42,059 nucleotides of DNA, taken from Escherichia phage HHU8. Shown here in pieces: positions 11,324 to 38,609 of this stretch. Under the pieces are notes generated by a model. It made no database searches. It worked only from the letters and a program-made list of their open reading frames with translations, and had not been told where the DNA came from. Where the stretch lies: the sequence record PQ641135, one strand, 5' to 3'. Position 1 is the stretch's first letter; each line of letters opens with the position of its first letter. The position numbers and the translations under genes were made by a program.

Positions 11324-11929
11324 TTATCCTCCCCGCGCCGACTCATAGCGCCGCCAGCTCTGACGCTGACGGGCATTGAACTTTCTCTGACGTATGTGCA
11401 TACTCTGACATTGCTGTAGTGCAATAGCATACCCCGTGGCGACGCTGGCAGGGGCATTGTCGCCCACGTCATCCGCATACGCCATCATAGCTGCTTGATA
11501 AGCAATCATTCTTTGTACAGCGTTAGGCAGGTCATCCCAATCTACGTCATATGTAACTAAGCCCGGAACATCCTCAGTAAAAACAAAGGATTTGGCCTTT
11601 GCGTTGTAAAGATACCCACCTCGCGTGATACATTCGAAACCATCAGGTACGAACGCCAGCGCGTCTGCGGGATATGGGACACGTCCATCGCTCTCACGGT
11701 TGACCGTGATACGGATGTTGTTGAACCACCACCCCTCGTTGAGAACGGCCTGCCGAGACTCATCAATCTTGTCTAACGCAAGCGTTACCGATGGGTGTCG
11801 TATTTCCGTAGAGGATACGGTGTGTTCAGATAGTGCCCGAAGAACAATGTTAACTGCTTCGAGTAAAGTCATAGAACCCCCAGTGATAATCATAGAAGCC
11901 CCTCTTGCGAAGGGCTTCGAGTTTACCAT
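11324..11929 (-). CDS. tail tubular protein A (T7 gp11-like)
   Basis: 201-aa ORF between capsid and tail tubular B; ATG at 11927-11929 overlaps the capsid stop. Call based on size and synteny. Confidence 0.65.
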   Translation of the reverse strand: MVNSKPFARGASMIITGGSMTLLEAVNIVLRALSEHTVSSTEIRHPSVTLALDKIDESRQAVLNEGWWFNNIRITVNRESDGRVPYPADALAFVPDGFECITRGGYLYNAKAKSFVFTEDVPGLVTYDVDWDDLPNAVQRMIAYQAAMMAYADDVGDNAPASVATGYAIALQQCQSMHIRQRKFNARQRQSWRRYESARGG

Positions 11930-12921
11930 TAGGTCTCGGTAGTGACGACTGCCACCACGTCTGGACGACGCTGGCCCACGGTGTACATGTGGAAGCTATC
12001 CAGAACGTTGGTCAGTTCACGTTCGTCATCCCATACGCGGTTGAACAGCGGCTGGGCTTCGACAGTGACCAGAGCCAGAGACGGGTCGAAGATAATCATC
12101 TTGCGCTGAATCTCGTCGGCAGTGACGTTGAAGTCAGGGCCGAGGATGTGGTCAGTGATTGCCGCCTGCGGGAACGCGTTGCTCTCGATGATACGGATAC
12201 CGTTCACGTAAGCCACACGGCGCATTGCGAAGTCGTTGACACCACGGCCACCAGTGAACTCAACGTTCATCAGTTTCTTGTGCTCCAGCAGAATGCTGAA
12301 CCACGCCGGGTCAATCAGCGTAACCAGACGGCCAAGGTCAGCGTCGCGGCGAATGAACGCCTCGATAGCTTTCTTGTGGCCATGTACCAGCGCAGACGCG
12401 TCATCTTCCTCAGATGCCACGGTGCCAGTCAGAGTGACCTGCTCCTTGATACCTGCGTTGAACGCGCCAGCCAGAGAAGCCGGAGGCACGAAGTCAGCAG
12501 ACTTCTGGAGCTGGATGACGTGCGCTTGGTCGAACGCCTTAGCCTGAGCAGTGCCCATGTTACGGGTCAGCTCGGCACGGAAGTCCGGCGCAGTCCAGTC
12601 GTCCTGATAGTCAATCGGGATACGGATGTAGGACACGGTATCCACAGTGACAATCAGTTTCTCAGAGCGAACAGGCTGGTTGTCCAGCGCCTCGCCAGAG
12701 CGACGACCTTTAACAGTCACGGAGCCGAGACGGTCGCCACGCCAAGTGTTGGACTGGTTAGCCACAGACTTGAAGTTGGTCAGACCGGAACGGAAGATGG
12801 AGTTGTAAATGAACTGGGTCTGCACGTCACGGTCATACACCTCAAGGTGAATGTCGTTGTCAGAGTTCGCGCCACCCCAGTGTGGACGGAACTGGTTCGG
12901 GGTATAAGCGTTATCAGCCAT
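11929..12921 (-). CDS. major capsid protein (T7 gp10-like)
   Basis: 330-aa ORF following the scaffolding gene; ATG at 12919-12921 preceded by AAGGA. Size and position fit the T7-like major capsid protein. Confidence 0.75.
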   Translation of the reverse strand: MADNAYTPNQFRPHWGGANSDNDIHLEVYDRDVQTQFIYNSIFRSGLTNFKSVANQSNTWRGDRLGSVTVKGRRSGEALDNQPVRSEKLIVTVDTVSYIRIPIDYQDDWTAPDFRAELTRNMGTAQAKAFDQAHVIQLQKSADFVPPASLAGAFNAGIKEQVTLTGTVASEEDDASALVHGHKKAIEAFIRRDADLGRLVTLIDPAWFSILLEHKKLMNVEFTGGRGVNDFAMRRVAYVNGIRIIESNAFPQAAITDHILGPDFNVTADEIQRKMIIFDPSLALVTVEAQPLFNRVWDDERELTNVLDSFHMYTVGQRRPDVVAVVTTET

Positions 12922-12941: not shown

Positions 12942-14171
12942 TTAGTAACCTTGAGCTTTAGCCTGACGGCGCTGCTCTACCAGTACGGCGTAATGCTTGT
13001 TGTATTCCGGGGAACCAACAGGATGCGCCTGCTCAAGCCAGCCAAGATGCTGACGGAATGCCTCGTTGGTCATAACTTCACGAGGTGCTTGACCGCCACC
13101 ATTAGGCGTCAAAGTTTGTCCAGAGCGCTGAATCAAGTTCCCTGCGGAACCAGCGAACTGGAGAATGGTGTTCACTGCCAGACGTACCTGATTAGGGTCG
13201 CCGGAGTTAACAGCCGCAACAACAGCATCAATAGTGCCCTTGTCAGCAGCAGTATTGAATGCCTGTACAGCCAGACCCCATCGTTCCTCGCCGCCAGCCA
13301 TCTGGTAAACCTGCTGCTCGATTGCAGCGTCGCGCTGCTGACCAGCCGCAACCAGTGCGCCGAATTGACCTTTGAGGATTGATACAGTCTGAGGGTCGAA
13401 CTGAGCCAGATAGCGGTCGTTCACCAGAGACGGGTCACGACGCTCGTAGGCAGAACCGAACGCTGCGAGCAGGTCGATGTTCTGGCCACGGGCAATGGTG
13501 TCCATGCCTTGGAATACGGCGCGACTGGTATCGTCCGGGAAAATCTGAGCAACCTGCTCTGCGGTCAGACCACCTTCCTGAGTCGCCAGTTTCTCAGCCG
13601 TGAGGTTGGGATTCTGGAACTGCTGCGGAGGCTGGCCCGGCTGCTGCGGCTGCAACTGTTGGAAAGGCTGCGGCTGCTGCTGGGGCTGCGGTGCCTGCGG
13701 CTGGCCCGGCTGACGACCATACGGGTCGAAAGCATAAGGCTGTGGAGCTACAGGGTTCTGGAACTGCTGTGCCGGGGCCGCTTGGCCCGGTGGCGTTGCG
13801 CCCGGATTCTGATACCCATTAACCGGAATAGGTGGTGCCGCAAACGGAGAGGTCTGCTGCGGAGCACCATACGGGTTCTGCTGAGGTACGGGTGCGTAAG
13901 GACTTGGATTTCCCTGTTGGGGCTGTGCATACGGGTTGTGCTCCTGTGCAGGAATCAGGCCCGGCTGCTGTCCGAACGGCTGCACTGGCTGCGGGGTAGC
14001 GCCACCGCGAGGTAACTCGATAGGCGTACCCAGTCGGCCTAGCGCTGGGTTCTGTACCACCTGTGGGCTTCCACCATAATCATTACCGCCGTGACCAGAG
14101 GGAGCATAGGTCGGGCCAGCGGGTACGTTTTGGGGAGCGGGTGCGGCAGTAGGTTGGGATTCACCAAACAT
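12942..14171 (-). CDS. scaffolding protein with a Pro/Gln-rich low-complexity N-terminal half
   Basis: 409-aa ORF between portal and capsid; ATG at 14169-14171 preceded by GGAGAA. The first ~190 aa are extremely P/Q/G-rich (e.g. QPQAPQPQQQPQPFQQLQPQQPGQPPQQFQNP). Confidence 0.6.
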   Translation of the reverse strand: MFGESQPTAAPAPQNVPAGPTYAPSGHGGNDYGGSPQVVQNPALGRLGTPIELPRGGATPQPVQPFGQQPGLIPAQEHNPYAQPQQGNPSPYAPVPQQNPYGAPQQTSPFAAPPIPVNGYQNPGATPPGQAAPAQQFQNPVAPQPYAFDPYGRQPGQPQAPQPQQQPQPFQQLQPQQPGQPPQQFQNPNLTAEKLATQEGGLTAEQVAQIFPDDTSRAVFQGMDTIARGQNIDLLAAFGSAYERRDPSLVNDRYLAQFDPQTVSILKGQFGALVAAGQQRDAAIEQQVYQMAGGEERWGLAVQAFNTAADKGTIDAVVAAVNSGDPNQVRLAVNTILQFAGSAGNLIQRSGQTLTPNGGGQAPREVMTNEAFRQHLGWLEQAHPVGSPEYNKHYAVLVEQRRQAKAQGY

Positions 14172-16010: not shown

Positions 16011-16429
16011 TACGGTTTCTCCAAATCAATGAAGCGGTACTCCTGAACGTAAGGCCGCACCATATGGGAGTAACCGCACCAACGCACACCCGCTGAACGG
16101 GCCACGTCTTTGAGTACACGGAGGATGGCACGCATCACTCCACGGTTTCTGTACTGGGGCCAGACGTATGAGGCCATAACGACCACCATCTCACCCACAT
16201 GAATATCGAATAACCTGCCGATGTGAGCAACAGCCATGAGGCTGCCGTCATCGTCAGTGATGTAAACGTCAACGCAGCCGGAGGCGGTGGCCTCGTACAT
16301 GCTGTCAACAATCACATCGGGAGATAGGTCTGACCATGGCCGCTCAGCTTGAATGCCCTCGGCCACAGCACGGCGAATGTCGAGTGGCATCGTCGTGTGT
16401 GATGTATTTCCCATAGTAGACACTTTCAT
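16010..16429 (-). CDS. putative GNAT-family N-acetyltransferase
   Basis: 139-aa ORF; contains an R-x-x-G-x-G/A acetyl-CoA-binding-like motif (RNRGVMRAIL) followed by an amphipathic helix, as in GNAT motif A. Its ATG (16427-16429) lies inside a copy of the 21-bp ATGAAAGTGTCTA motif. Confidence 0.4.
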   Translation of the reverse strand: MKVSTMGNTSHTTMPLDIRRAVAEGIQAERPWSDLSPDVIVDSMYEATASGCVDVYITDDDGSLMAVAHIGRLFDIHVGEMVVVMASYVWPQYRNRGVMRAILRVLKDVARSAGVRWCGYSHMVRPYVQEYRFIDLEKP

Positions 16430-16677: not shown

Positions 16678-16698
16678 TATCACTATAGACACTTTCAT
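16678..16698 (+). promoter_or_regulatory. second copy of the 21-bp promoter-like element (plus strand TATCACTATAGACACTTTCAT) with an adjacent 14-bp palindrome, between the RNA polymerase gene and the late genes
   Basis: Plus strand 16670-16683 GTGATATCTATCAC is a palindrome; 16678-16698 is identical to the minus-strand sequence at 37488-37508. Lies in the 110-nt gap after the RNA polymerase stop. Orientation of function is ambiguous. Confidence 0.4.
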
Positions 16699-16726: not shown

Positions 16727-19159
16727 TCAGCAGAAAAACTTGCTTGATTGTTTCACAAGTTGGATATCCAGATTGCCACGCTCAGGTGCAACAGCATTGT
16801 ATCGTACAGCAAGTTGTTGAATCGGGTCATGTTGCTCATACATCTGCACGAACTTTTCACGAATGACCTTGTGGAGTAACCCGGCATGAGCTGCTGCCAC
16901 CCCGAACGAATCGTGGATAGACACCATGTACACCCCGTTATTCCACATCTCCCACAACACCTTCATCATGTGGCTGGCATCCATAGCGTGTACGAAATTC
17001 GGAGCAATCGCAGCGGCACACTTCCTGCCATCAGGCTTGTCCAGATACTCGCGCAGCTTAATGCTGTGGATACCCATGAGGTTGATGTTATTGAGCATCG
17101 TCTCCTTGCTGGCTTGATACAGGTTCACCACTCGCAGCCCTGACGGTGCAATGATTTCCACGTACTCACCGTTGGCTGCCGCCTCTACCGCGATAGCCTG
17201 CAACCATGCCATCAGCTCTGCCGCCTTCGGCACAACGCGAGGGATTGCATTCCACATGAACTCTGCGATGAACTGCGCACACTCCAGTAGGCTCTTGCCG
17301 TCCGGCAGCTTGACCCGGTTCTCACGCAGGTACAGGCAGTAGTAGTCCACCATCCCGTGTCGGGTTGCCCCGTACACGTATGTCATCACTGGCTTCTTAG
17401 CCATCGCCCGGACAATGCCGATTGAAACAAGCCACGAACCCATCTGCGTCGGTGACTGCGCTTCACTATCTTCAAGAGCCTGCATCGCCGCTGCTGCCGT
17501 CTTGAGATATATGTCTGCTTTTCTTCCCACGCTATTGATAAGATTGACAGCAGCACCTCCAACTTCATCTCGTAGCATCGCACTGAGGTGCTGGAGTCCT
17601 GAACAGGTAGCATCCCATTGCGTGACCACTCGGCAGGGATAAGTCTCAGGATTTCCTGAGTCGATAGCGCGAATGAGTTCAACAGAGGCAGCCCACGCGC
17701 TGATAGGGCTATCGGCCTCTGACCAGAACGAATCAAATGCCTCTGGAAGACGGCACGCCTCACGTAGTCGGGGGAGTGTCTTGTCCGTCCACGCCGCCCG
17801 GTCGTCGAAGTCTGTTGCGTCGTAGCCGAAGCAATTCGCAACATGAACCTTGAGCCAGAACAGCCCCTCAGTTCCGAGAGCCACTGGTTCCGCAAGCTCA
17901 AGCAGCGCTCGCACCGCGTCGATAGACTGAGGATTAAGGGTCGAAGAATAATAAATTCGGCCCCGCGTATCGGCGTAAGTCGGGAGATAAATCCTATCGT
18001 ACTGCGCATACCTGTCTGCCTCTTTGACTGCACCATTCAGCGCCAGCATCTGTGACGTGAACTTACGCAACTCATTGTAATACAAGCGAGTCTTCACCTT
18101 GTACTCATGAGCTTCGGCATCCATCTGCTGCTGCATCTCTGGTGGGAACTTGCTGATGTACTGTGCAAAGCTCACACCAGCCGGGATGGTAAACGGAAGT
18201 GTAGGTTCACGAGGCGGCACAGGCAGCCCCATAACGCCTGTACGGTTCGTTCGCAGGAACTCCAGTACCATTGGGTTAACTCGGTACGGAACGCTGCTGA
18301 GCATCATACACGGCTCTATAACGGGGGTAGGGTCAACGTTCAATGCACGATACCCTTTATGGTTCATGCGGCTCATTACCCGGTACATCGCTGCCTGCCC
18401 ATCTGAATGCCACATACCGCTGCGACCGTTAGGTGCAATCTGCTTCGGCGGGATAATCAGTGGTGGGCAGCACATGCCATCAGCACGCGGCATGTCCAAC
18501 CAGTCATTCATCGTAGCCAGCACATCCTCGTGCAATGCAAAGTGTGCCGTACCGCGCTGGCGCTGGTTGCCTCCGACACGAATCGTGGACACCAGACCAG
18601 TTGGCTCAACGCACTTCATCATAAGCTTGCCAATGGTAATCAGCGCACGCTGCGGCAGCACATCAATCTCCACCCCAACGTTCGCCGCCGACGCACGCGC
18701 TTTGTTGTAGACGTGGTTCGCTGACTTCGAGCGAGACTTCTTCACGTCCTGCTTAACGCGCTCCATGTACGCCGCCTGCTGCGGCCCGGTCTGCTTCGCC
18801 CGGAGGTACACCACCTCAGCCATCAGTGCCTTGCCCATGCTCTTGAGCAGACTCAGTACCGCCTGCTCCGACGCAGCACCGGACACCGCCATGCTCAGTG
18901 CAAGAGAGGCACACGCTTTGGTGCCAATCTCACGCATGTACGTCCGGTACTGCGCACCATACCCACGGGTCGTTTCGCTCAGGGTTTCTTGCATCGCAGC
19001 TTCGACCAGAGGATAAGCCTCAACCATCATACGCTGGAGCAACGGCACCGACCCGGCGCGGCCACTGGCCATCGCCTCTTTGATATTATCCAGCCAGCCC
19101 TCGCGGTGTCTGGCTCGCGCTTCTTCTTCAAGTCGAATCTGCTCTGCAAGTAAATCCAC
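16727..19159 (-). CDS. single-subunit DNA-dependent RNA polymerase (T7 RNAP family)
   Basis: 810-aa ORF with hallmark motifs: DATCSGLQH (motif A), VMTYVYGAT (motif B region), HDSFG (motif C). Start is GTG at 19157-19159, 5 nt after a perfect AAGGAG. Confidence 0.9.
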   Translation of the reverse strand: MDLLAEQIRLEEEARARHREGWLDNIKEAMASGRAGSVPLLQRMMVEAYPLVEAAMQETLSETTRGYGAQYRTYMREIGTKACASLALSMAVSGAASEQAVLSLLKSMGKALMAEVVYLRAKQTGPQQAAYMERVKQDVKKSRSKSANHVYNKARASAANVGVEIDVLPQRALITIGKLMMKCVEPTGLVSTIRVGGNQRQRGTAHFALHEDVLATMNDWLDMPRADGMCCPPLIIPPKQIAPNGRSGMWHSDGQAAMYRVMSRMNHKGYRALNVDPTPVIEPCMMLSSVPYRVNPMVLEFLRTNRTGVMGLPVPPREPTLPFTIPAGVSFAQYISKFPPEMQQQMDAEAHEYKVKTRLYYNELRKFTSQMLALNGAVKEADRYAQYDRIYLPTYADTRGRIYYSSTLNPQSIDAVRALLELAEPVALGTEGLFWLKVHVANCFGYDATDFDDRAAWTDKTLPRLREACRLPEAFDSFWSEADSPISAWAASVELIRAIDSGNPETYPCRVVTQWDATCSGLQHLSAMLRDEVGGAAVNLINSVGRKADIYLKTAAAAMQALEDSEAQSPTQMGSWLVSIGIVRAMAKKPVMTYVYGATRHGMVDYYCLYLRENRVKLPDGKSLLECAQFIAEFMWNAIPRVVPKAAELMAWLQAIAVEAAANGEYVEIIAPSGLRVVNLYQASKETMLNNINLMGIHSIKLREYLDKPDGRKCAAAIAPNFVHAMDASHMMKVLWEMWNNGVYMVSIHDSFGVAAAHAGLLHKVIREKFVQMYEQHDPIQQLAVRYNAVAPERGNLDIQLVKQSSKFFC

Positions 19160-30821: not shown

Positions 30822-30893
30822 AGTTCACCTCACGTTGGCCAATATAGACACCTTCATAATGCCTGCTAAATAATAACAGGCATGAGTAGATGA

Positions 30894-31064
30894 CTACGCC
30901 GGAATAACATTACGCACTATACGTTGCAGGTCTTCGAGTTTACTCTCGGCCTCCCACTTTGTATCACGTACAGCCAAAGGTTTATTCGGCTGGAGTTTAT
31001 TAACAACCCACCAGAATAATCCGGTGGGTGATTTGATTACGGCCAGCTTAGTGTCGCGTTGCAT
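30894..31064 (-). CDS. hypothetical protein
   Basis: 56 aa from the ATG at 31062-31064 (GGAG upstream); the longer track ORF starts at a GTG. Confidence 0.35.
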   Translation of the reverse strand: MQRDTKLAVIKSPTGLFWWVVNKLQPNKPLAVRDTKWEAESKLEDLQRIVRNVIPA

Positions 31065-31560
31065 TCTTCGACTCCAGCATTGCACGAATCATTTTTTCAA
31101 CGTTACCCTTGAGGGTACGAATCGTTGCGTCAATGAACTCACCCACGAACAGCAGACCCAGCGCAGTCTCGCTGATATCCTTCGGCACGTTGGCACACGC
31201 CATGTACCAGTCGTGATACTGCTCAGCAATATCCTTGCTCGACATAGCCTGCGCCGCCAGCTTGCCAGCCAGACGCAGCTCGACCTGTGCTTCTTCATCG
31301 CCAGCAGCCTGCGCCACCCGCATGTTCATGCCGATGATGACGCTGACGTTGCGAGCCAGCAGCGCACCAGTACGAGTGGCCGGGATAATGTCCAGTGCCG
31401 CCTCTTTACCAGCACGCACCGCGCCGATGTAGCTTTGCTTCGGCATGTACCCGCCTTTGTACTCAATGATTTCACTGAGCATCGGCTCGCTGTCGATGTG
31501 CTCAGCCAGCAGCTTGATTACTTCCAACTGCTTAGGGTTAAATGTTTTGAAGTCAATCAT
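31048..31560 (-). CDS. hypothetical protein
   Basis: 170-aa ORF; ATG at 31558-31560 overlaps the upstream stop (ATGA). Confidence 0.5.
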   Translation of the reverse strand: MIDFKTFNPKQLEVIKLLAEHIDSEPMLSEIIEYKGGYMPKQSYIGAVRAGKEAALDIIPATRTGALLARNVSVIIGMNMRVAQAAGDEEAQVELRLAGKLAAQAMSSKDIAEQYHDWYMACANVPKDISETALGLLFVGEFIDATIRTLKGNVEKMIRAMLESKNATRH

Positions 31561-31856
31561 TTGTTATCCTCTTTCAGAATACGCACGGTGAACTCGTCGT
31601 CCTCGTACGCCTGCCACTCACGTTCAGGGCCATGTCCCAGTTTGGTAACAACCAGTCGGCTGCCGTCATACTCAACGGCACCGATGCGCTGGATGTACCC
31701 GCCGTATGCTACCACGTAGTCGCCCAGCTTAAGCTCCTGCGTTTTCTTCTCGACGTACTGAAACGGCGAGTCGTCATGCACAGGGACTGGCGGTGCGCCA
31801 AAGGCATCCACCAACCAGCGCTGTAGCTTGGCTACGTTCTCACTCCACTTACTCAT
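31557..31856 (-). CDS. hypothetical protein
   Basis: 99 aa from the ATG at 31854-31856, just after the upstream gene's stop. Confidence 0.45.
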   Translation of the reverse strand: MSKWSENVAKLQRWLVDAFGAPPVPVHDDSPFQYVEKKTQELKLGDYVVAYGGYIQRIGAVEYDGSRLVVTKLGHGPEREWQAYEDDEFTVRILKEDNK

Positions 31857-31858
31857 AG

Positions 31859-32143
31859 TCACACCTCTCTTTCTTCCAGCCATTGTTGCGCGGCTGCATA
31901 CGCATCTTCATAACTGATGAAGCCGTCGAACTCGTCGCCGTTCGGTGCGAGGAAGCACCAGTCGAGCTTCACATTAGGATTGCCACGAGCAAAGATAACG
32001 CAGGGAAACACACCGCCTACGCTGTGACCACGCAGGCCACCGTTGCCAGAGAGATGACCACGGGTAGCTGCGACCCCGCGCTTTTCAACTGCCGCCCGGA
32101 TATCTGCGGCGTGCTCAATGATTGATTCGGATGCCAGTACCAT
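31859..32143 (-). CDS. hypothetical protein
   Basis: 94-aa ORF; ATG at 32141-32143 with GTGAGGT upstream. Confidence 0.45.
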   Translation of the reverse strand: MVLASESIIEHAADIRAAVEKRGVAATRGHLSGNGGLRGHSVGGVFPCVIFARGNPNVKLDWCFLAPNGDEFDGFISYEDAYAAAQQWLEEREV

Positions 32144-32145
32144 GA

Positions 32146-32298
32146 TTAATACCTCACTAAATAATATTCCCAGTGCATGAAGTGGCCGCCGAGATACACG
32201 GCATGGCTCACCAGATTAGGGTTGCTTGCCCCACCCAGCGCACAGTAACCAGCGTAGGTTAACTGATTGGCGTGAGCATTATATGTGCTGCCGCCCAT
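32146..32298 (-). CDS. small hypothetical protein (50 aa), below the ORF-track length cutoff
   Basis: My own translation: ATG at 32296-32298 preceded by GGAGGT with ~6-nt spacing; 50 codons (MGGSTYNAHANQLTYAGYCALGGASNPNLVSHAVYLGGHFMHWEYYLVRY) ending at TAA 32146-32148, directly upstream of the next gene's start. Confidence 0.3.
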   Translation of the reverse strand: MGGSTYNAHANQLTYAGYCALGGASNPNLVSHAVYLGGHFMHWEYYLVRY

Positions 32299-32355
32299 AC
32301 TTACCTCCATCGTTTGATAATGACACTGCCCCCGGCACGCAGAGGCAGTAGCTTA

Positions 32356-32601
32356 TCACACTTCGATGGTGCCAGCCAGTTCATACGGGCCGAAGCAATT
32401 GATGACAGCTTGCGACTTGACATGCGTGCGGTTAGCTTCGAAGCCTGCACGCTTGGTGGTTGCGATGCGCTGCACATCAGCCAGTGTCTCAGCCGCCGCG
32501 CCGTTCATTGCAATCACATCGACCGGAGCTACAATCTGCTGCCCTTCCGGTACGATAGTCCAGTCACCCTCGCCGTCTTTGTATACGTCATACTTAGCCA
32601 T
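32356..32601 (-). CDS. hypothetical protein
   Basis: 81-aa ORF; ATG at 32599-32601 with GAGAGG upstream. Confidence 0.45.
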   Translation of the reverse strand: MAKYDVYKDGEGDWTIVPEGQQIVAPVDVIAMNGAAAETLADVQRIATTKRAGFEANRTHVKSQAVINCFGPYELAGTIEV

Positions 32602-32659
32602 GTTTGCCTCTCGTTTATTTGATAGTGGTACAGCCCCTGCAAGCAGAGGCTATAGATTA

Positions 32660-32911
32660 TTACTCGACGAACTTGAATGACTTACCTTCATGGTAGTCAA
32701 TGTGTGCGCTAGCTAAGTCACCCACTTCATCACGGAAACTGACCGAGCGCTTGTCAACTTCATCCCCTTCGGCGTCCACTTCGCCCGGTTCGAGGATGAG
32801 TACATCGTACTCTTTACCCTCAACGGTATCGAGGAACGGACAGAAGGTGCCGAACGGAGTAGGACGGCCACAGTCGTTGCGCAGAATTACAATCTTAGCT
32901 TGAGTGCTCAT
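32660..32911 (-). CDS. hypothetical acidic protein
   Basis: 83 aa from the ATG at 32909-32911 (GAGGT upstream); acidic stretch EPGEVDAEGDEVD. Confidence 0.45.
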   Translation of the reverse strand: MSTQAKIVILRNDCGRPTPFGTFCPFLDTVEGKEYDVLILEPGEVDAEGDEVDKRSVSFRDEVGDLASAHIDYHEGKSFKFVE

Positions 32912-32999
32912 ATAAAACCTCACGTTAGGTTGATGTTATGACCGATGATGCGAATCAGAATTGAACGTGCCATGTTGTTACCCTCTCTTGTGTTGTGGA

Positions 33000-33242
33000 T
33001 TAAACGATTTCAAACCAGTCGTGAGACTGCGTGAAGAAGTCACACGGATGGCCGCGCTCGTCCAGTACAGCCACGGTCTCGAAGCCTGCTACATCTTCGG
33101 CGTTCTTACCGTAGACTTTGGCCAGCTTGGGGAAAGCCTTGACCAGATTCTCGCCAGCATCAATGAGCACTGCATCGTACTCGTTGCCAACGGTGAAGCC
33201 AGCGCGACGGCCTACTACTTTCAACTTAACTTTCTTGCTCAT
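33000..33242 (-). CDS. hypothetical protein
   Basis: 80-aa ORF; ATG at 33240-33242 with GAGGAA upstream; overlaps the upstream stop. Confidence 0.45.
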   Translation of the reverse strand: MSKKVKLKVVGRRAGFTVGNEYDAVLIDAGENLVKAFPKLAKVYGKNAEDVAGFETVAVLDERGHPCDFFTQSHDWFEIV

Positions 33243-33580
33243 GATTGTTCCTCGTTGTCAATACCAAAGAGATACATCTGCCCTTCATAGATGGGAGTCA
33301 GTACCTTGAGCCACGTCTGGACAGCCAGCGGCGCGGCGCTATGATGTTGCTCGTTCAGCAGGTCAATGATGAATGGCCTGCGCCCGGCGTACGCTTTGAA
33401 GCGGTCGATGATTTGCTCGTCGGTCGCCTCGCTCGTCAGCATGTGCTGACCTAAGATTTCAATCTGGTCAATGACGACCAGCCCTTCCTGACCATCGGGC
33501 AGGCGGTACAGCAGTACCGCCACGTCTTGCCCATCCGTAATGTCAGGCCCACGGAATACCTTGACCGGATGCAGCGCCAT
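33239..33580 (-). CDS. hypothetical acidic protein
   Basis: 113-aa ORF; ATG at 33578-33580 with GAGGT upstream. Confidence 0.45.
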   Translation of the reverse strand: MALHPVKVFRGPDITDGQDVAVLLYRLPDGQEGLVVIDQIEILGQHMLTSEATDEQIIDRFKAYAGRRPFIIDLLNEQHHSAAPLAVQTWLKVLTPIYEGQMYLFGIDNEEQS

Positions 33581-33582
33581 GC

Positions 33583-33867
33583 TTAGACCTCGAAGCTACC
33601 AATCGCCTCGTAGCCCTGAGCAGGCATGTTCTCAGCCGCGCTAGCGTTCAAGGTGCCTCCGTTCAGCAGGAACGCCAAGTCACCCATGCGGCTGATATCA
33701 GATTCCAGCGATGGCAGCGCAGCCTTAGCATCTTCCACCGTGTTCAGTTCCGGTACTTCTTTGCAGCCAGAGATACACAGCGCCATGTTGCCTTCTTCGA
33801 ATCCATCGCCCACGACTGCAACGATATCTTTTTGGGAAGCAGAGTAGTAAGCAGTTACTTTAGCCAT
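33583..33867 (-). CDS. small acidic early protein (member of the hairpin/box-preceded array)
   Basis: 94 aa from the ATG at 33865-33867 (GAGGG upstream); preceded by hairpin 33905-33928 and box GGCATGATTGCC 33890-33901 (plus-strand view). Confidence 0.45.
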   Translation of the reverse strand: MAKVTAYYSASQKDIVAVVGDGFEEGNMALCISGCKEVPELNTVEDAKAALPSLESDISRMGDLAFLLNGGTLNASAAENMPAQGYEAIGSFEV

Positions 33868-33889
33868 GATAAAACCCTCAGTTAGTTGC

Positions 33890-33928
33890 GGCATGATTGC
33901 CCTACAGCCCACCGCTACGGATGGGCTG
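33890..33928 (-). promoter_or_regulatory. intergenic hairpin plus GCAATCATGCC box (unit 1 of 4-5)
   Basis: Minus strand: stop, hairpin CAGCCCA-N10-TGGGCTG, then GCAATCATGCC, then ~20 nt, SD, ATG at 33867. Confidence 0.45.
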
Positions 33929-33935
33929 ACAGAAA

Positions 33936-34166
33936 TCACGCAGTCGCTATGACTTCACCTTCGAGTGCAGCTTCCACCGCCTCAGCGTAGCCCGGAATGG
34001 CCTGCGCTTCTTCGATATCTTCCATGTCATCATCGACTTTGAACCAGCGACGAGCGCTGTGTTCGCTGTTGTAGATGGCGACCAGCGTGCGGTCATTAGC
34101 AAACTGCGCGAATGTTTCTTCGCCATCGTTCGGGTCGATGAAGCGTACCAGTTCAAACTTAGCCAT
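33936..34166 (-). CDS. small acidic early protein
   Basis: 76-aa ORF; ATG at 34164-34166 with AGGAG upstream; acidic (DDDMEDIEEAQ). Confidence 0.45.
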   Translation of the reverse strand: MAKFELVRFIDPNDGEETFAQFANDRTLVAIYNSEHSARRWFKVDDDMEDIEEAQAIPGYAEAVEAALEGEVIATA

Positions 34167-34194
34167 GCTTTGTACTCCTATTGTTGGTGGTCGG

Positions 34195-34470
34195 TTACTC
34201 GAAGTCAGCCGCGTCTACGTTGTCGGCTTCGAAGCTGGTGATGAAGCTCGGCTCCAGTTCGTTCAGCTTCTCGACTGACAGCTTGCCACCTTGAATGGCA
34301 ATCAGCATACCGCCGAGGTCTTCCAGAGCCTCGCGCACTTCACCGATTACTTCATCGTGGCTTGCGTCCGGCTTCGGCTGCACGCCCAGCGACGGTGCGT
34401 TATCTTTGGTCTCGCCTACGATGAAAGCCAGACCGCCGTTGTTCAGTGCAAACACATTGATAGTGGACAT
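34195..34470 (-). CDS. small acidic early protein (member of the hairpin/box-preceded array)
   Basis: 91 aa from the ATG at 34468-34470; acidic C-terminus (EADNVDAADFE); preceded by box GGCATGATTGCC at 34492-34503 and a GC-rich hairpin. Confidence 0.45.
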   Translation of the reverse strand: MSTINVFALNNGGLAFIVGETKDNAPSLGVQPKPDASHDEVIGEVREALEDLGGMLIAIQGGKLSVEKLNELEPSFITSFEADNVDAADFE

Positions 34471-34491
34471 AATAAATCCTCGATAGGTTAG

Positions 34492-34530
34492 GGCATGATT
34501 GCCGCATTGCCCCCTCGCAAGGAGGCAACA
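34492..34530 (-). promoter_or_regulatory. intergenic hairpin plus GCAATCATGCC box (unit 2)
   Basis: Box (plus-strand view GGCATGATTGCC) at 34492-34503, preceded on the minus strand by an imperfect GC-rich hairpin (TTGCCTCC...GGGGGCAA); ATG of the downstream gene at 34470. Confidence 0.45.
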
Positions 34531-34535
34531 AGGTA

Positions 34536-34877
34536 TCACGCGTCGAAGTCGATATCGTCTTCCGCGTCGTACTCTTTGAGCACGTTGATAACCACATCTT
34601 CACCCAGTGTTTCGGTGTCGATGTAGGAGTGGCCGCCCATGAGAGCGAACAGTTCCAGCGGGAAGCCAGACTCGCGGAACTCTGCGAAGCTGGTGTCGTT
34701 ATCGAAGTGCGCCACGATAGCGTCAGGTGAATCGCCGTCGCGGTTGCGGCCTGCAATCAGGTAACGCTCGTCGTCCTGAGTGAAGCCAACCCACTCGCTG
34801 GTGATAGCGTCAGCCGGAACGCCTGCACCAAAAGCAGAGGCAGCGATGTTGGACAGCAGAACCAGTTTGATAGACAT
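34536..34877 (-). CDS. small acidic early protein (member of the hairpin/box-preceded array)
   Basis: 113 aa from the ATG at 34875-34877; acidic C-terminus (EYDAEDDIDFDA); preceded by box GGCATTATTGCC at 34900-34911 and hairpin 34915-34937. Confidence 0.45.
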   Translation of the reverse strand: MSIKLVLLSNIAASAFGAGVPADAITSEWVGFTQDDERYLIAGRNRDGDSPDAIVAHFDNDTSFAEFRESGFPLELFALMGGHSYIDTETLGEDVVINVLKEYDAEDDIDFDA

Positions 34878-34899
34878 AGTAAAACCCTCAATTGAGTAA

Positions 34900-34937
34900 G
34901 GCATTATTGCCACGCTGCGCCCTCGTTGAAGGCGCAG
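34900..34937 (-). promoter_or_regulatory. intergenic hairpin plus GCAATAATGCC box (unit 3)
   Basis: Box at 34900-34911, hairpin CTGCGCC-N9-GGCGCAG at 34915-34937; ATG of the downstream gene at 34877. Confidence 0.45.
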
Positions 34938-34948
34938 CAGGACAACGC

Positions 34949-35230
34949 TTACTCGTCGTCAACCTCGGCTTCAAAGGTGCCGATTTCTTCCAGCGTCAGG
35001 CCGCTACCGTGACGCGCTTTCAGCTCGTCTTCATCATGCTCAGCCAGCATGATGATGAACTCATGCGGCAGCGGGATGCCTTTCAGCGTTTCAAGGATGC
35101 CAGCGGCATCGGTCGGCTCACCGTCTTCACGAACGTGGTGCAGGTACTGGCCCGGATTGATGGACACAGCATAGCCGTACACTTCGCCGTCACGATTGGT
35201 AGTGAATGCAGTTACAGTTTTGGTAGTCAT
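34949..35230 (-). CDS. small acidic early protein (member of the hairpin/box-preceded array)
   Basis: 93 aa from the ATG at 35228-35230; acidic (EHDEDELK...EAEVDDE); preceded by box GGCAGAATTGCC at 35254-35265 and hairpin 35269-35292. Confidence 0.45.
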   Translation of the reverse strand: MTTKTVTAFTTNRDGEVYGYAVSINPGQYLHHVREDGEPTDAAGILETLKGIPLPHEFIIMLAEHDEDELKARHGSGLTLEEIGTFEAEVDDE

Positions 35231-35253
35231 GGATGATACTCCGTAATGGTTGG

Positions 35254-35292
35254 GGCAGAATTGCCATAAAGCCAGCGCCTTGACACTGGCTT
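35254..35292 (-). promoter_or_regulatory. intergenic hairpin plus GCAATTCTGCC box (unit 4)
   Basis: Box at 35254-35265, hairpin AAGCCAG-N10-CTGGCTT at 35269-35292; ATG of the downstream gene at 35230. Confidence 0.45.
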
Positions 35293-35306
35293 GAGTCAAT
35301 CCCGGC

Positions 35307-35501
35307 CTATTCCTCACAGATGAGGTAGCGGGTTCCGCTTTCAGTGACCGCAACGGCACCTTCGAACGATGCGACAGGTGAAGTCGTTACAGGCGTGCCA
35401 TTACTGAAACGCTGGTCACGGTCATTGTAGATATGACCTACGAGGCAGCGCCCTCTGGTGATGCTGCTGCGGGTTACGAGAACCGCGTCGAACTCTTGCA
35501 T
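35307..35501 (-). CDS. hypothetical protein
   Basis: 64-aa ORF; ATG at 35499-35501 with GGAG upstream; preceded by hairpin 35532-35552. Confidence 0.4.
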   Translation of the reverse strand: MQEFDAVLVTRSSITRGRCLVGHIYNDRDQRFSNGTPVTTSPVASFEGAVAVTESGTRYLICEE

Positions 35502-35560
35502 GTTTACACTCCAGTTGTGTGGTTACAATTCAGGCCACTCAGTGAATGGCCTGTCAGTAA

Positions 35561-36088
35561 TCACGCAGCTTTCAGCTTGCGCAGCCCGTCCAGTACGTTC
35601 TGAGGCACGACAACCTTGTTCGCGTCCTCATCGCGCCCTTCATGGCGCAGCTCGTTCGCCTTGCTCATTGCTTTTTCAGCTTTGGCAATGAGCTTGTCCA
35701 GCGCTTCTTGCAGGTCGAAGCCTTCGAACGCTGGCTCAGGCTTGCAAGTCCACCACATCGTGGCTTTCGCCTTGTCGATGTTCAGCTTGATATGCTCCGC
35801 GCCTTTCCAGCCCACGAAGCCCGTCTTGCCGTCGTCCTTCTCGCCCACAATCAGTCCGCCGAACTGGACGAACCAGTCAACCAGCGCTTTACCACGGACG
35901 CCTTCACCCAGTTGGTTGGTGAAGGTTTCAGCACGGGTGTAGTCGCCGTGGTTGTAAGCGTGCAGGATAATGCCGACCGCAACGTTCTGAATCTCATTAC
36001 GGAGTGAGTGCGCCTTTTTAACAGTCGCTTCGATAGCTTTGTCCAGCGCCGCAGCGTCTTTGAACGCGGTATATTTAACAGTAGTCAT
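35561..36088 (-). CDS. hypothetical early protein
   Basis: 175 aa from the ATG at 36086-36088 (AAGGTGA upstream); the track ORF begins 3 codons earlier at a GTG. Confidence 0.5.
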   Translation of the reverse strand: MTTVKYTAFKDAAALDKAIEATVKKAHSLRNEIQNVAVGIILHAYNHGDYTRAETFTNQLGEGVRGKALVDWFVQFGGLIVGEKDDGKTGFVGWKGAEHIKLNIDKAKATMWWTCKPEPAFEGFDLQEALDKLIAKAEKAMSKANELRHEGRDEDANKVVVPQNVLDGLRKLKAA

Positions 36089-36163
36089 GATAGTCACCTT
36101 GTCGGTTGGTTGATTTCACATAGCGCCCCGCAGGACGCTATAGGCTATCAGCCACGGCGTTTG

Positions 36164-36556
36164 CTACGCCTCTACTACCCAAAATTGCGCACCATCGTAA
36201 GTCCAAGCAGTGTACTGCCCGGCTTCCATCTCGGCCTCAGTCTTACTGACTAACTTGCCAGCAGGCTTGCCCGGACATGGTGAATCCATGAAGATTGCAT
36301 CATCATCATCAGTCACTACCATGATGCAGTCCTGTTCAAGAGCCTTACAGAACAGCTTAATAGCCTGCCTGATTTCATAGATTCCATCGACAGGAAATAC
36401 CATGCTCAACTCGTACTGATTGTCGAACTTGCCTGTCAGTGTGACCGGAATCACTCCGAACATATCCTGCACCGTTCGCAGTGCCTTGCAATGAAGCGCC
36501 AGATTAACACACTCAGCATTGTTCTGACGATATGCGCTTGCATAGATACGGTACAT
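36164..36556 (-). CDS. hypothetical protein, first early gene downstream of the sigma70-type promoters
   Basis: 130-aa ORF; ATG at 36554-36556 with GGAGAA upstream; lies ~450 nt downstream of the tandem promoters. Confidence 0.5.
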   Translation of the reverse strand: MYRIYASAYRQNNAECVNLALHCKALRTVQDMFGVIPVTLTGKFDNQYELSMVFPVDGIYEIRQAIKLFCKALEQDCIMVVTDDDDAIFMDSPCPGKPAGKLVSKTEAEMEAGQYTAWTYDGAQFWVVEA

Positions 36557-37014
36557 AGTTATTTCTCCAGTTGTTGGCTATTTTCAGGTGGATAGTGAAC
36601 CCATTGTGACGCGCCGTACAGTCTGCACTCGTTGGCATTGATTGGCTTGTCGGATTCACTACCCTGAAAAATCGCCCCGCCCATTTCGCGCTGTGAGTAT
36701 TGTCTTCACTCACTCTCAGGAGTCTTCCAGCAGTCCGGCTCACCGTCACCAGCTTATGCCTACCTACCCGCTATACTCCGCGCCTTATAAGACGTTTGGG
36801 ATTGTGCTGATACTGCGCTGCGTCTATCGCGCTTCTCCGTTCCCTTGCATCGGGCGCTACCCCTACGGCGTTAGCATTGTTGCGATACCGTTGCCTTTCG
36901 GCGATGCCTCACCCAGTTCCAACCTGCGGCGGATACCCAGTGAGCCGTGACACTACGCGGCCAGTTTGCGTTCACTCAGAGCAGGATGCTTTCCATCCTT
37001 TCAACTCGGTGCTG

Positions 37015-37043
37015 ATTACAACACAGTGTATTCAGCTTGTCAA
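37015..37043 (-). promoter_or_regulatory. sigma70-type early promoter P3 (TTGACA - 17 bp - TGTAAT)
   Basis: Minus strand TTGACA (37038-37043), 17-nt spacer, TGTAAT (37015-37020) with TGT upstream; third tandem copy. Confidence 0.6.
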
Positions 37044-37083
37044 CTACTTTTTACTTCTGACTGACTGGCTTACTGCCTGTCAA

Positions 37084-37112
37084 TCTGGTGTGTATTACAG
37101 CATACTCGTTCC
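37084..37112 (-). promoter_or_regulatory. sigma70-type early promoter P2 (TTGACA - 17 bp - TGTAAT)
   Basis: Minus strand TTGACA (37107-37112), 17-nt spacer, TGTAAT (37084-37089) with TGC upstream; same architecture as P1. Confidence 0.6.
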
Positions 37113-37229
37113 ATCCTGTCAACCGATTTAATCAGCGCCCGTTCTGAGATGATTAGACCGTACCAGTTTGCCTGCGTGGGTTTTAACGTCTTTATCCATG
37201 ACTGTTTGGCTTGCTGGTTGACTGGAAGC

Positions 37230-37258
37230 ATTACAGCATAGTGAGTTTGCCTTGTCAA
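37230..37258 (-). promoter_or_regulatory. sigma70-type early promoter P1 (TTGACA - 17 bp - TGTAAT)
   Basis: On the minus strand: TTGACA (plus coordinates 37253-37258), exact 17-nt spacer, TGTAAT (37230-37235), with TGC immediately upstream of the -10 hexamer (extended -10-like). Points toward the early genes. Confidence 0.6.
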
Positions 37259-37330
37259 CACACCAGATTGTTAAAGAGCAGTGTTACCGTTCAATCTTGT
37301 CTACTGGGCTAGTGCCTTTCGACGTGATGA

Positions 37331-37360
37331 ATTACAGCACATAACCAAAACAGTTTGCAA
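37331..37360 (-). promoter_or_regulatory. possible weaker sigma70-type promoter P4 (TTGCAA - 18 bp - TGTAAT)
   Basis: Minus strand TTGCAA (37355-37360), 18-nt spacer, TGTAAT (37331-37336). Confidence 0.35.
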
Positions 37361-37381
37361 GTATTATTTTCAAGAAAAGTG

Positions 37382-37479
37382 ATAAGTTACTGTAATCATT
37401 GAGATTAAAGTTTGATTGGATAATCACAACACTGGATAGAATACCGTTATCAGATAGGTCATAAGTTACTGTAATCATT
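37382..37479. repeat. AT-rich region with a 19-bp perfect direct repeat (ATAAGTTACTGTAATCATT x2)
   Basis: Identical 19-mers at 37382-37400 and 37461-37479 within an AT-rich block between the T-depleted tract and the sigma70 promoters. Confidence 0.5.
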
Positions 37480-37487
37480 AGATAATT

Positions 37488-37508
37488 ATGAAAGTGTCTA
37501 TAGTGATA
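37488..37508 (-). promoter_or_regulatory. promoter-like element with T7-class core (minus strand reads TATCACTATAGACACTTTCAT), upstream of the sigma70 promoters
   Basis: Minus strand carries ...GATACTATATCACTATAG|ACAC...; the core TCACTATAG matches the conserved -8..+1 of T7/SP6/K11-group promoters. It sits just upstream of the tandem early promoters, comparable to the T7 left-end phage promoter. Perfect 21-bp inverted copy of 16678-16698. Confidence 0.4.
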
Positions 37509-37519
37509 TAGTATCGCTA

Positions 37520-37960
37520 GATACGCAGAGCGAGCGCGGCGCAGCCGAAACAAGCGAGCGCGGAACGTCAACGGATGGAATCCGACAGGATGACAGGCGG
37601 CAGACAGTGAACGCAGTAGGACAGTAGACAGAGTGTAACAGCAGGTAGCAGAGCATGACGCGCAGAGCTGGAGGCGCAGACAGTAGACCAGCAGACAGGA
37701 CAGCACCACGCAGCACCACGCCGCGCCACGAAAAGAGACAGATACCCGCCCGACCACAGGCAGCACGCAGCACCGCGCAGCCAGCGCAGAGCGTCCCCAT
37801 AGGACAGCACCGCACAGCACAGCCAGCAGGACAGCACCGCGCCGAGTGATGAAACGCGACACGCACGAGCTATACCGCACGCAGGCAATCCTCTTGACGC
37901 GCCGCGCAGCGCACGCGAGCAATTATCGCGCACGTCGCGAGGCTAAACCGCGCACACGCT
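37520..37960. repeat. thymine-depleted, short-repeat-rich non-coding tract (candidate terminal-repeat / concatemer-junction region)
   Basis: About 440 bp in which the plus strand is nearly devoid of T and is built from degenerate short repeats (AGGACAGCACC at 37697, 37800 and 37828; GACAGTAGAC at 37625 and 37681; many ACGCAG/CAGCAC units). No credible ORF; lies between the last gene (endolysin) and the early promoters. Confidence 0.5.
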
Positions 37961-38072
37961 ATGGGGGCACGCGCGGTCATTTGGGTCGAGGGAGGGGCAC
38001 GTACAAATAGTCAATTTTCAAGCCGGGGTATTGCACCCACGGCCTGTTCATTGCATCAGCTTTTGGATACCC

Positions 38073-38609
38073 CTACAGCGTCGCACAGTAAGCGCTACAG
38101 CGTTTTGCACGGGCAACCAAGGCATCCCTATAGCGAACCACTGTCGGGGCTGTAGAAGCCTTTAGGAACGCAATACGAAGGTCACAGATGGCTGCTGCTG
38201 CGGAGTGAGGTTCCAGACGTTTGGCTGCTGCCACGGTAGCAGGGCCAATAACCCCGTCTTGTGCAACACCGCATACCCGCTGTAGAGCTTTCGCAGCACG
38301 GGAGACGCCGGAGTTGACGCCGTAATCAAACACGGCACATGCAATCGCAGGGTGAAGCTCGTCACCTCTGATGGGGCTGTAGTAGTCCCGGCGATAGATT
38401 GCCTCGGCTTGCTCTTTGGTGAGCTGCTTGATAGGCACACACACAGTGCCGCCAAGCCCAGTAGGGACACCACAAGCTCTACCATCCAGCTTCCCATCAC
38501 GAGCGTCACTAATTCCATGGTTGGTCTCCCCTCCAGTGTCACCGGGCAGCTTGGTGTACCCACCCTCGGCCAGCCCGGTGAACTTCATACAGATTTCAAA
38601 GTTAGTCAT
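38073..38609 (-). CDS. endolysin: glycoside hydrolase family 108-like N-terminal domain plus PG_binding_3-like C-terminal domain
   Basis: 178-aa ORF; N-terminal GLAEGGYTKLPGDTGGETNHGI fits the GH108 lysozyme motif pattern (EGGY...D.GG.T..GI), and the C-terminal GVAQDGVIGPATVAAAKR fits a peptidoglycan-binding domain. No signal peptide, so holin-dependent. ATG at 38607-38609 overlaps the upstream stop (TAATG). Confidence 0.75.
   Translation of the reverse strand: MTNFEICMKFTGLAEGGYTKLPGDTGGETNHGISDARDGKLDGRACGVPTGLGGTVCVPIKQLTKEQAEAIYRRDYYSPIRGDELHPAIACAVFDYGVNSGVSRAAKALQRVCGVAQDGVIGPATVAAAKRLEPHSAAAAICDLRIAFLKASTAPTVVRYRDALVARAKRCSAYCATL

Follow-up and report, generated by a model that had tools for sequence, protein, structure and literature searches.

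The early region of Escherichia phage HHU8 raises the question of why several consecutive small genes, most of them encoding strongly acidic proteins, should each be preceded by the same combination of a GC-rich hairpin and a short box, GGCAATNNTGCC. The window analysed here, that is, the whole stretch of 42,059 nucleotides in record PQ641135, is a circularly permuted Bonnellvirus genome (Autographiviridae, J8-65-like) in which the minus strand carries every gene. A preliminary description of positions 33583-35560 had read the repeats as parts of a modular anti-defence or host-takeover cassette with individually controlled genes, and had raised RNase III-type processing as a further possibility. 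The element is best explained as an ordinary, though unannotated, mRNA-processing signal and not as a separate switch for each gene. Specifically, we put at about 0.7 the probability that the units are T7-type RNase III processing and stabilising hairpins, at which the polycistronic early transcript would be divided into gene-sized messages.

The element is genuine and not random. The box has four exact matches in 42 kb, all of them intergenic and on the coding (minus) strand (units U1 to U4; Table 1), against a mean of 0.19 in shuffled windows, none of 100 of which held four; allowing one mismatch adds a single site, at 13491-13502 on the opposite strand. Every box comes after a GC-rich hairpin and is followed 21-23 nucleotides downstream by an ATG (33867, 34470, 34877 and 35230), itself preceded by a Shine-Dalgarno-like GAGG or GGAG. 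Thus the preliminary description was accurate in placing the same unit ahead of four early genes, with the box, the hairpin, the Shine-Dalgarno sequence and all four start coordinates correct. Its fifth unit, ahead of the gene that starts at 35501 (U5), is likewise real, but the label 'degenerate' does not suit what proves to be the most T7-like of the early units (E = 3.5e-7 with the T7-site model described below). The gene for the 76-residue protein has no unit of its own, and further related hairpins lie outside the range first described (U0, U7 and two T7-type hairpins; Table 1).

Hairpin and box had been taken for separate elements. However, the minimum-free-energy fold of every unit pairs the box with sequence 5' of the hairpin, giving a single stem-loop with two tiers and 17-25 bp (z-scores from -3.3 to -4.1). 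The hairpin makes up its upper stem, and the box supplies the 3' strand of the lower one. The upper stems measure 7-11 bp and their loops 3-6 nucleotides, rather than the 6-8 bp and 9-10 nucleotides first given. Positions 7-8 of the box vary from unit to unit (CA, AA, TC) and the facing strand changes in step. In U1 and U2 the box pairs with GCGUGAU, formed by the final codon of the upstream gene and its stop codon, whereas in U3 and U4 the box-pairing sequence lies just 3' of the upstream stop codon; the lower stem of U3 begins in the stop codon region (GAGUAAGCGUUGU) and continues past the box. U4 combines the box with a T7-like internal loop (ACUC...UUAUG), and U5 has an upper stem-loop, ACAGGCCAUUCACUGAGUGGCCUGAAU, similar to that of T7 R1 above a lower stem formed by GUGAUUAC and GUAACCAC. 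The gaps between genes that hold units are 59-76 nucleotides long, and the only short intergenic gap without a unit gives no fold. A scan of the entire window for stable 64-nucleotide folds is uninformative because the genome is GC-rich (153 coding-strand and 115 opposite-strand segments at or below -24 kcal/mol).

The pairing is conserved through compensatory changes. Of the 35 distinct sequence contexts found across 12 related phages, 27 have the box paired with its upstream flank. Pairing in the upper helix reaches 99.4% in 20 distinct Bonnellvirus box units, with compensatory changes at seven of nine pairs, and 100% in 29 distinct units from IMG/VR, with compensatory changes at 9/9; neither shuffled nor slid controls came near the observed pairing values. 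The lower stem also compensates: UGA opposite box C7 becomes UAA opposite U7 in LIMEzero, GCG opposite G10 becomes GUG opposite A10 in BF25/12, and a change of box U9 to C converts a G.U pair to G-C. Compensating lower-stem changes are found in further units of the same loci and in GenBank phages. G.U pairs are frequent, one lower-stem pair being G.U in all 20 Bonnellvirus box units, and the structure therefore sits in the transcript of the coding strand. Viral contigs were scanned first with a sequence pattern and then with a covariance model of the box units (the box-unit model), and the element was located in many contigs of about 43-45 kb. The phage records inspected annotate none of these hairpins, the Bonnellvirus papers do not mention such elements, a full-text literature search with the box sequence returned unrelated primer sequences only, and an Rfam search of 31000-38200 (E <= 5) gave matches at chance level.

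The closest known counterparts are the early RNase III sites of T7. A separate covariance model, the T7-site model, was trained solely on five T7 sequences (R0.3, R0.5, R1, R1.1 and R1.3, at positions 890, 1468, 3138, 5887 and 6448, which we take to be those of Dunn and Studier, 1983) and run unfiltered on the whole window. It gave six matches, five of them on the coding strand and intergenic and the sixth the reverse-strand image of U5. At four sites E was below 0.001, namely 11877-11933 (7e-9), U5 (3.5e-7), U4 (3.4e-4) and 30841-30898 (3.8e-4); two of the five units are thus found, and a third, U1, is matched weakly (0.14). When folded in the same way, the T7 sites have 17-21 pairs in the same two-tier layout as the units, and all five T7 positions fall at the same place in the fold, 5 nucleotides 3' of the upper stem. 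The strings common to T7 sites and units are ACUCAAGG..CCUUUAUGA, CAGGUCAU..GUGGCCUGAAU and GAGUGAUAG..UUAUCAC, and can also be given as ACUCAAGG..CCUUUAUG, CAGGxCAU..GUGGCCUGAAU and GUGAUA..UAUCAC. Like the T7 early sites, the units are two-tier hairpins (about 18-20 bp with an internal loop) between the cistrons of an early transcript made by host polymerase, with a stop codon in or adjoining the lower stem and a ACUAACUGGAG-type leader followed by the Shine-Dalgarno sequence. Escherichia coli RNase III substrates typically comprise about two helical turns (PMC1540722), the size of the units with their 17-25 pairs in one domain, and two of the T7 early sites, R0.5 and R1.1, function efficiently as RNase III sites (PMC3643576). 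The earlier suggestion of T7-like RNase III sites is accordingly borne out as far as architecture, placement relative to stop codon and Shine-Dalgarno sequence, and covariance-model matches, significant for U5 and U4, can indicate.

There are also differences from T7. HHU8 lies outside Studiervirinae and has a phiKMV-like gene order, with its RNA polymerase gene far downstream (16727-19159). In U1-U3, which form a subtype, the helix is nearly continuous and the lower stem is fixed (GCGUGAU/AUCAUGC); T7-site model scores for this subtype are weak or nil. These units may nevertheless be linked to the T7 type through U4, which both models match, and through units of BF25/12 and KP34 that are also matched by both. 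More broadly, the T7-site model matches many units in other Bonnellviruses, both models match the early regions of LIMEzero, KP34, Buco and BF25/12, and LIMElight is matched by the box-unit model. Since some units match both models, the two subtypes grade into each other.

The same evidence bears on the proposal that each unit is a promoter, for sigma-70 or for the phage RNA polymerase, that controls its gene individually. Such a role would account for a conserved motif about 25 nucleotides upstream of start codons, and the U0 hairpin holds CCTATAG, which recalls T7-type promoters and belongs to a motif published as a putative phage promoter (PMC4411677). However, compensatory changes and G.U pairs indicate selection on RNA pairing, which promoters do not need, the box is absent ahead of middle and late genes, and ATGAARGTGTCTATAKTG, the genome's sole phage-promoter-like repeat, is unrelated to the box. 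A consensus scan of 31000-38200 found no sigma-70-like site on the coding strand, at the units or elsewhere, although the same scan also missed the tandem early promoters, because their -10 hexamer has G at position 2. The genes lie instead in one transcription unit downstream of those tandem promoters, and individual control by promoters is very improbable. Two specific versions were discarded: a sigma-54 reading of GG..GC has the wrong spacing, judged by eye, and the box as a -10 element with a -35 element in the hairpin loop would require a spacing that is inconsistent among units. The hairpins lack a U tract, as first described (the upper stems are followed by UAGGGC, UGCGGC, CGUGGC and UUUAUGG), which makes terminators unlikely; a terminator scan lists none of the units.

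The published promoter motif itself merits attention. In Kp34-like phages AGCCTATAGCGTCCTACGGGGCGCTATGTGAA has been listed as a putative phage promoter, promoter or nick site, and the authors pointed out that late transcription requires another explanation (Eriksson et al., 2015, PMC4411677). The motif has the same sequence as U0 but for one loop base, and likewise lies between small genes of the early region; here, in contrast to the promoter or nick site of that paper, it is read as a two-tier hairpin. The copies listed there include a compensatory upper-stem change (GCAUCC/GGGUGC against GCGUCC/GGGCGC), and KP34 (L059) has copies of the U0-type hairpin at 1487-1538 and about 2508-2561, the latter matched weakly by the T7-site model (E = 0.044). 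U0 is a divergent relative of the units. Because of the two-tier hairpin, the compensatory stem change and the weak match in KP34, the motif is more likely to be an RNA structure of the same broad family, an assignment that is weaker than for the units.

A different motif, ATGAA(A/G)GTGTCTATA(G/T)TG, has a CTATAG core like that of T7 and SP6 promoters and occurs in three exact copies against 0.05 expected, at 16681-16698 (-), 30840-30857 (-) and 37488-37505 (+), with a weaker copy at 16412-16429 (-). The first lies just after the RNA polymerase gene, the second opens the DNA-metabolism block, and the reversed third copy points away from all genes, into a GC-rich repeat zone. We read this motif as a candidate promoter for the phage RNA polymerase.

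Several observations weigh against RNase III as the enzyme concerned. RNase III sites cannot be proved from sequence, the training coordinates of the T7 sites do not come from an annotation (the T7 records NC_001604 and V01146 carry no RNase III site features), and the T7-site model misses U2 and U3 at E <= 10 and reaches only 0.14 for U1. The assignment of U2 and U3 would thus depend on family resemblance, that is, on shared architecture, the lower stem and intermediate units elsewhere. Box units are nearly continuous helices without the asymmetric internal loops of the T7 sites, and if cut at all could show another pattern, for example cleavage of both strands. In E. coli RNase III substrates, internal loops confine cleavage to a single strand, so that a protective 3' hairpin survives (PMC1540722). 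The lower-stem conservation in the alignment of IMG/VR units is partly imposed, because the collection scan fixed GCGTGAT and GGCAATCATGCC. In U3 orthologues with the box GGCAAUACUGCC, and in one U4 orthologue, the box change weakens the lower stem and is not compensated, and in J8-65 and Lidtsur the box directly follows a hairpin that is already complete without it.

Part of this evidence would suit hairpins that are generic intercistronic stabilisers or folding insulators, whose function is to stop 3' exonucleases once another enzyme, such as RNase E, has cut the RNA, or to modulate translational coupling, with no involvement of RNase III. A strong GC hairpin protects a 3' end whatever enzyme made it, the failure of the T7-site model to recognise U2 and U3 is in keeping with such a role, and a stop codon inside the lower stem fits translational coupling, since a terminating ribosome must then open that stem. 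Yet a 3' barrier requires the upper hairpin only, whereas the lower stem is kept by compensatory changes, total helix length is held at 17-25 bp, the size of an RNase III substrate, and U5 and U4 resemble proven T7 RNase III sites in both sequence and structure. We consider generic stabilisation unlikely, although it deserves more weight than promoter function.

The box might alternatively have an RNA function of its own, either as a binding site for a phage or host protein or as a mini-hairpin, GGCA-NNNN-UGCC, that forms at the 5' end after cleavage and protects or regulates the processed mRNA. The GGCA and UGCC arms are invariant in 41 of 41 Bonnellvirus copies while positions 7-8 vary, a paired change of G2 to A and C11 to U (GACAAUCAUGU, GACAAUUCUGU) occurs in two different unit types, the box is retained in J8-65 and Lidtsur even though their hairpin does not need it, and a cut placed by T7 analogy falls exactly at the 5' edge of the box. 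Against this, a 4-bp stem is marginally stable, and the change of U9 to C in LIMEzero and in IMG/VR locus L054 breaks the mini-hairpin while improving or keeping the lower stem, as does G10 to A in BF25/12, where a change in the 5' strand compensates the lower stem. Invariance at the level of the genus could also be explained by shared ancestry, exchange between units and a coding constraint on the facing strand (GCG UGA). Variants from different genera point both ways, and for this reason the mini-hairpin is left as a minor rival, with a separate role for the box being decidedly improbable.

Processing by RNase III therefore remains the favoured explanation, and might operate as follows. Host RNA polymerase would make one long early message from the tandem promoters at 37015-37360, whose intercistronic RNA folds into two-tier stem-loops of 17-25 bp, each with a lower stem of at least 7-9 bp and a GC-rich upper stem, separated by a small internal loop or bulge. 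In the box units the lower stem consists of GCG UGA U, contributed by the last codon and stop codon of the upstream gene, with the GGCAAUNNUGCC box as its 3' strand. By homology with T7 R0.3-R1.3, host RNase III would bind these helices and cut on the 3' side just 5' of the box; this placement follows the T7 cut CCUUUAU|GAU. The upstream mRNA would retain a protective 3' hairpin, and the downstream mRNA would begin about 35 nucleotides ahead of its AUG (the 12-nucleotide box and a 21-23-nucleotide leader). The structure, its conservation through compensatory changes, its likeness to the T7 sites and its position are observed, and from this likeness we infer the cleavage, its exact site and its effect on mRNA stability.

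The involvement of the stop codon has a consequence for the encoded proteins. Unrelated proteins end in alanine followed by the stop codon (GCG UGA) at 33936-33941, 34536-34541 and 35561-35566, and in locus L058 at 3917-3922, 4290-4295 and 4649-4654, while one LIMEzero gene ends GCG UAA in place of GCG UGA. They share this ending because GCG UGA forms the 5' strand of the lower stem, the RNA structure thereby dictating the last codon. It is tempting to go further and regard the box-type units as a distinct and widespread subfamily of RNase III sites that locks coding to RNA structure, GCG UGA against GGCAAUNNUGCC, but this stronger form is speculative and on balance unlikely. If it were true, a terminating ribosome would gate processing, the next processed mRNA would open with the 12 nucleotides of GGCAAUNNUGCC, its freed 5' end might refold or recruit a factor, and unrelated accessory genes would be swappable as 'box-leader-gene-GCGUGA' cassettes across at least six genera of enterobacterial Autographiviridae.

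Their repetition also makes the units joints for the loss or exchange of accessory genes. In the 12 phages compared, the genes between units come and go while the units persist at the boundaries. In mellemsur (L012, 5535-5585) the 5' half of U5 is fused to the 3' half of U1 in a single hybrid unit whose upper stem contains one mismatch, and the five intervening genes are gone. The isolation host of mellemsur was E. coli K-12 MG1655, on which the acidic array is therefore not required. In J8-65 and Lidtsur a complete T7-type hairpin is joined directly to a 'box-leader-gene' module. The promoter-early stem-loop (PeSL) cassettes of T4-type phages, reportedly described by Arbiol and co-workers in 2010, are comparable in that repeated regulatory units flank small, variable early open reading frames and serve as recombination joints; they differ in containing an early promoter, of which none was detected in the units described here.

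The proteins encoded between the units are, as first noted, small and strongly acidic (93, 113, 91 and 94 residues; Table 1). Together with the 76-residue protein they are the genome's most acidic, with net charges of -10 to -16% against about -3% for most others. The preliminary description likened them to DNA-mimic anti-restriction proteins such as T7 Ocr. Indeed, as in T7 and T3 the small acidic proteins are encoded in the leftmost early position, here behind a true S-adenosylmethionine lyase (SAMase) gene of the T3 anti-restriction type, and they are variable accessory genes, features that speak for an Ocr-like array of anti-restriction or anti-defence proteins. However, acidity alone is common among small early phage proteins, and no similarity to Ocr or any other solved protein emerged by sequence, profile or, for the two proteins modelled, fold. 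Pfam at E <= 1 gave sub-threshold noise only, with no match to Ocr or ArdA; PHROG matches were confined to families of unknown function; and a sequence search against solved structures gave no match below E 0.03. AlphaFold models of the 113- and 93-residue proteins are mixed alpha/beta globular folds of moderate confidence (predicted local distance difference test, pLDDT, 74 and 81); Foldseek found no match to either in the PDB at E <= 0.001, and the matches of the 113-residue protein in BFVD are Bonnellvirus proteins only. Homologues of the two come from close relatives only, in contigs of Bonnellvirus size (4 and 9 clusters), so that the models rest on thin alignments, and the lack of a PDB match does not itself argue mimicry away, because mimics have diverse folds. 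The whole set is, moreover, missing from mellemsur with its MG1655 host. A DNA-mimic array thus appears doubtful; the acidic proteins are early accessory proteins restricted to close relatives.

Nor is there detectable paralogy among the four proteins. All-against-all BLASTP of the early proteins found none, and profile comparison (hhalign) on shallow alignments gave three partial signals. Two involve the 91-residue protein, which matches the C-terminal half of the 175-residue early protein with 97% probability and the 94-residue protein weakly (65%). The third joins an 83-residue protein (32660-32911) and an 80-residue protein (33000-33242), both on the minus strand, which look like paralogues (89%) and whose genes share a 38-nucleotide DNA repeat of 71% identity (32781-32818 and 33151-33188).

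The wider setting of the units is that of an early transcription unit. The region is 82-91% identical to megetsur, altidsur, J8-65 and other Bonnellvirus Escherichia phages. Read along the minus strand, the large terminase and lysis genes are followed by a GC-rich repeat zone and an AT-rich zone with tandem promoters, then by the SAMase gene, the gene for the 175-residue phrog_1448 protein and about 15 small genes, and finally by the genes for helicase, DNA polymerase A and RNA polymerase and the structural genes. The tandem promoters are strong, carry an extended -10 element (TGnTGTAAT), lie about 450 nucleotides of leader away from the first gene, and are likely to be the start of the early polycistronic transcript. 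This gene order and the tandem promoters place the units in the host-transcribed early region of a phage with phiKMV-like order (Table 1).

Table 1. Features of the HHU8 early region and related hairpins, listed in minus-strand order
Feature	Position	Strand	Evidence and remarks
Three to four tandem host-type early promoters, TTGACA-N17-TGnTGTAAT	37015-37360	-	Sequence reading; direct-repeat family D3
Promoter copies	37230-37259, 37094-37123, 37015-37044; weaker, about 37331-37360	-	
SAMase, T3 gene 0.3-type anti-restriction enzyme; first early gene	36164-36556	-	Pfam PF23780, E 2.2e-25
U0, hairpin after SAMase gene, UGGCUGAUAGCCUAUAGCGUCC..GGGCGCUAUGUGAAAUCAACCA	36107-36154	-	Fold; weak box-unit model match, E 0.087
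175-aa early protein, phrog_1448, unknown function	35561-36088	-	
U5	35513-35568	-	T7-site model 35.3 bits, E 3.5e-7; z-score -3.98
64-aa early protein	35307-35501	-	
U4, box GGCAAUUCUGCC at 35254-35265 as lower-stem 3' strand	35250-35312	-	T7-site model E 3.4e-4 (match 35251-35309); box-unit model E 2.3e-15
93-aa acidic protein, net -14	34949-35230	-	Model pLDDT 80.6
U3, box GGCAAUAAUGCC at 34900-34911	34896-34957	-	Fold -36.3 kcal/mol, z-score -4.11; box-unit model E 4.4e-15
113-aa acidic protein, net -18	34536-34877	-	Model pLDDT 74
U2, box GGCAAUCAUGCC at 34492-34503; 5' strand GCG UGA U, end of 113-aa gene	34488-34548	-	Fold; box-unit model
91-aa acidic protein, net -12	34195-34470	-	
76-aa acidic protein	33936-34166	-	Shares inter-unit segment 33936-34470 with 91-aa gene, no hairpin between
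U1, box GGCAAUCAUGCC at 33890-33901; 5' strand GCG UGA UU, end of 76-aa gene	33886-33948	-	z-score -3.32; box-unit model E 2.5e-17; T7-site model E 0.14
94-aa acidic protein, net -9, phrog_32287, unknown function	33583-33867	-	
U7, two-tier hairpin GUGUGAUAAG...CAUUAUCA; lower stem resembles T7 R0.5	32315-32358	-	Fold; box-unit model E 0.0096
T7-type hairpin opening DNA-metabolism block; 3' strand overlaps candidate phage RNA polymerase promoter motif	30841-30898	-	T7-site model E 3.8e-4
T7-type hairpin directly 3' of 330-aa open reading frame (11929-12921)	11877-11933	-	T7-site model 41.2 bits, E 7e-9, best in window

A few neighbouring structures deserve mention. The 330-residue open reading frame that precedes the best T7-type hairpin in the window is, judged from its position only, a candidate major capsid gene. 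A 69-nucleotide irregular hairpin, UAGUGAAUCC...GGGUUCACUA (36593-36661, minus strand), whose 3' end lies 36 nucleotides ahead of the SAMase start codon, is kept in all related phages examined, with its apical part altered in ROV85, and may correspond to T7 R0.3 or else be a leader structure. Two hairpins at 30970-31033 (minus strand) lie directly 3' of the gene ending at 31048, the first followed by UUGUU, and are a candidate for the end of the early transcription unit, just upstream of the hairpin and promoter motif at 30840-30898. At the other end, an AT-rich direct repeat, AAGTTACTGTAATCATT, occurs twice 79 bp apart (37373-37479) and adjoins a GC-rich zone (37540-37980) dense in short GTGCTG and CTGTCC repeats; the region 37373-37980 probably represents the genome ends or a terminal repeat in the permuted window.

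Collectively, these results would explain the most conspicuous repeated non-coding element of the Bonnellvirus early region, an explanation that reaches phages of the LIMEzero, LIMElight, KP34, Buco and BF25/12 type and suggests that what was published for Kp34-like phages as a 'putative phage promoter' is an RNA hairpin belonging to the same broad family. They leave no ground for viewing the array as a set of anti-defence genes that are switched one by one. T7-style mRNA-processing signals would accordingly occur beyond Studiervirinae, in genomes of phiKMV-like order, although not in the early 12 kb of SP6 or phiKMV, where the T7-site model detected nothing significant. For annotation and engineering, the units would mark both the boundaries of mRNAs and the natural joints of gene cassettes.

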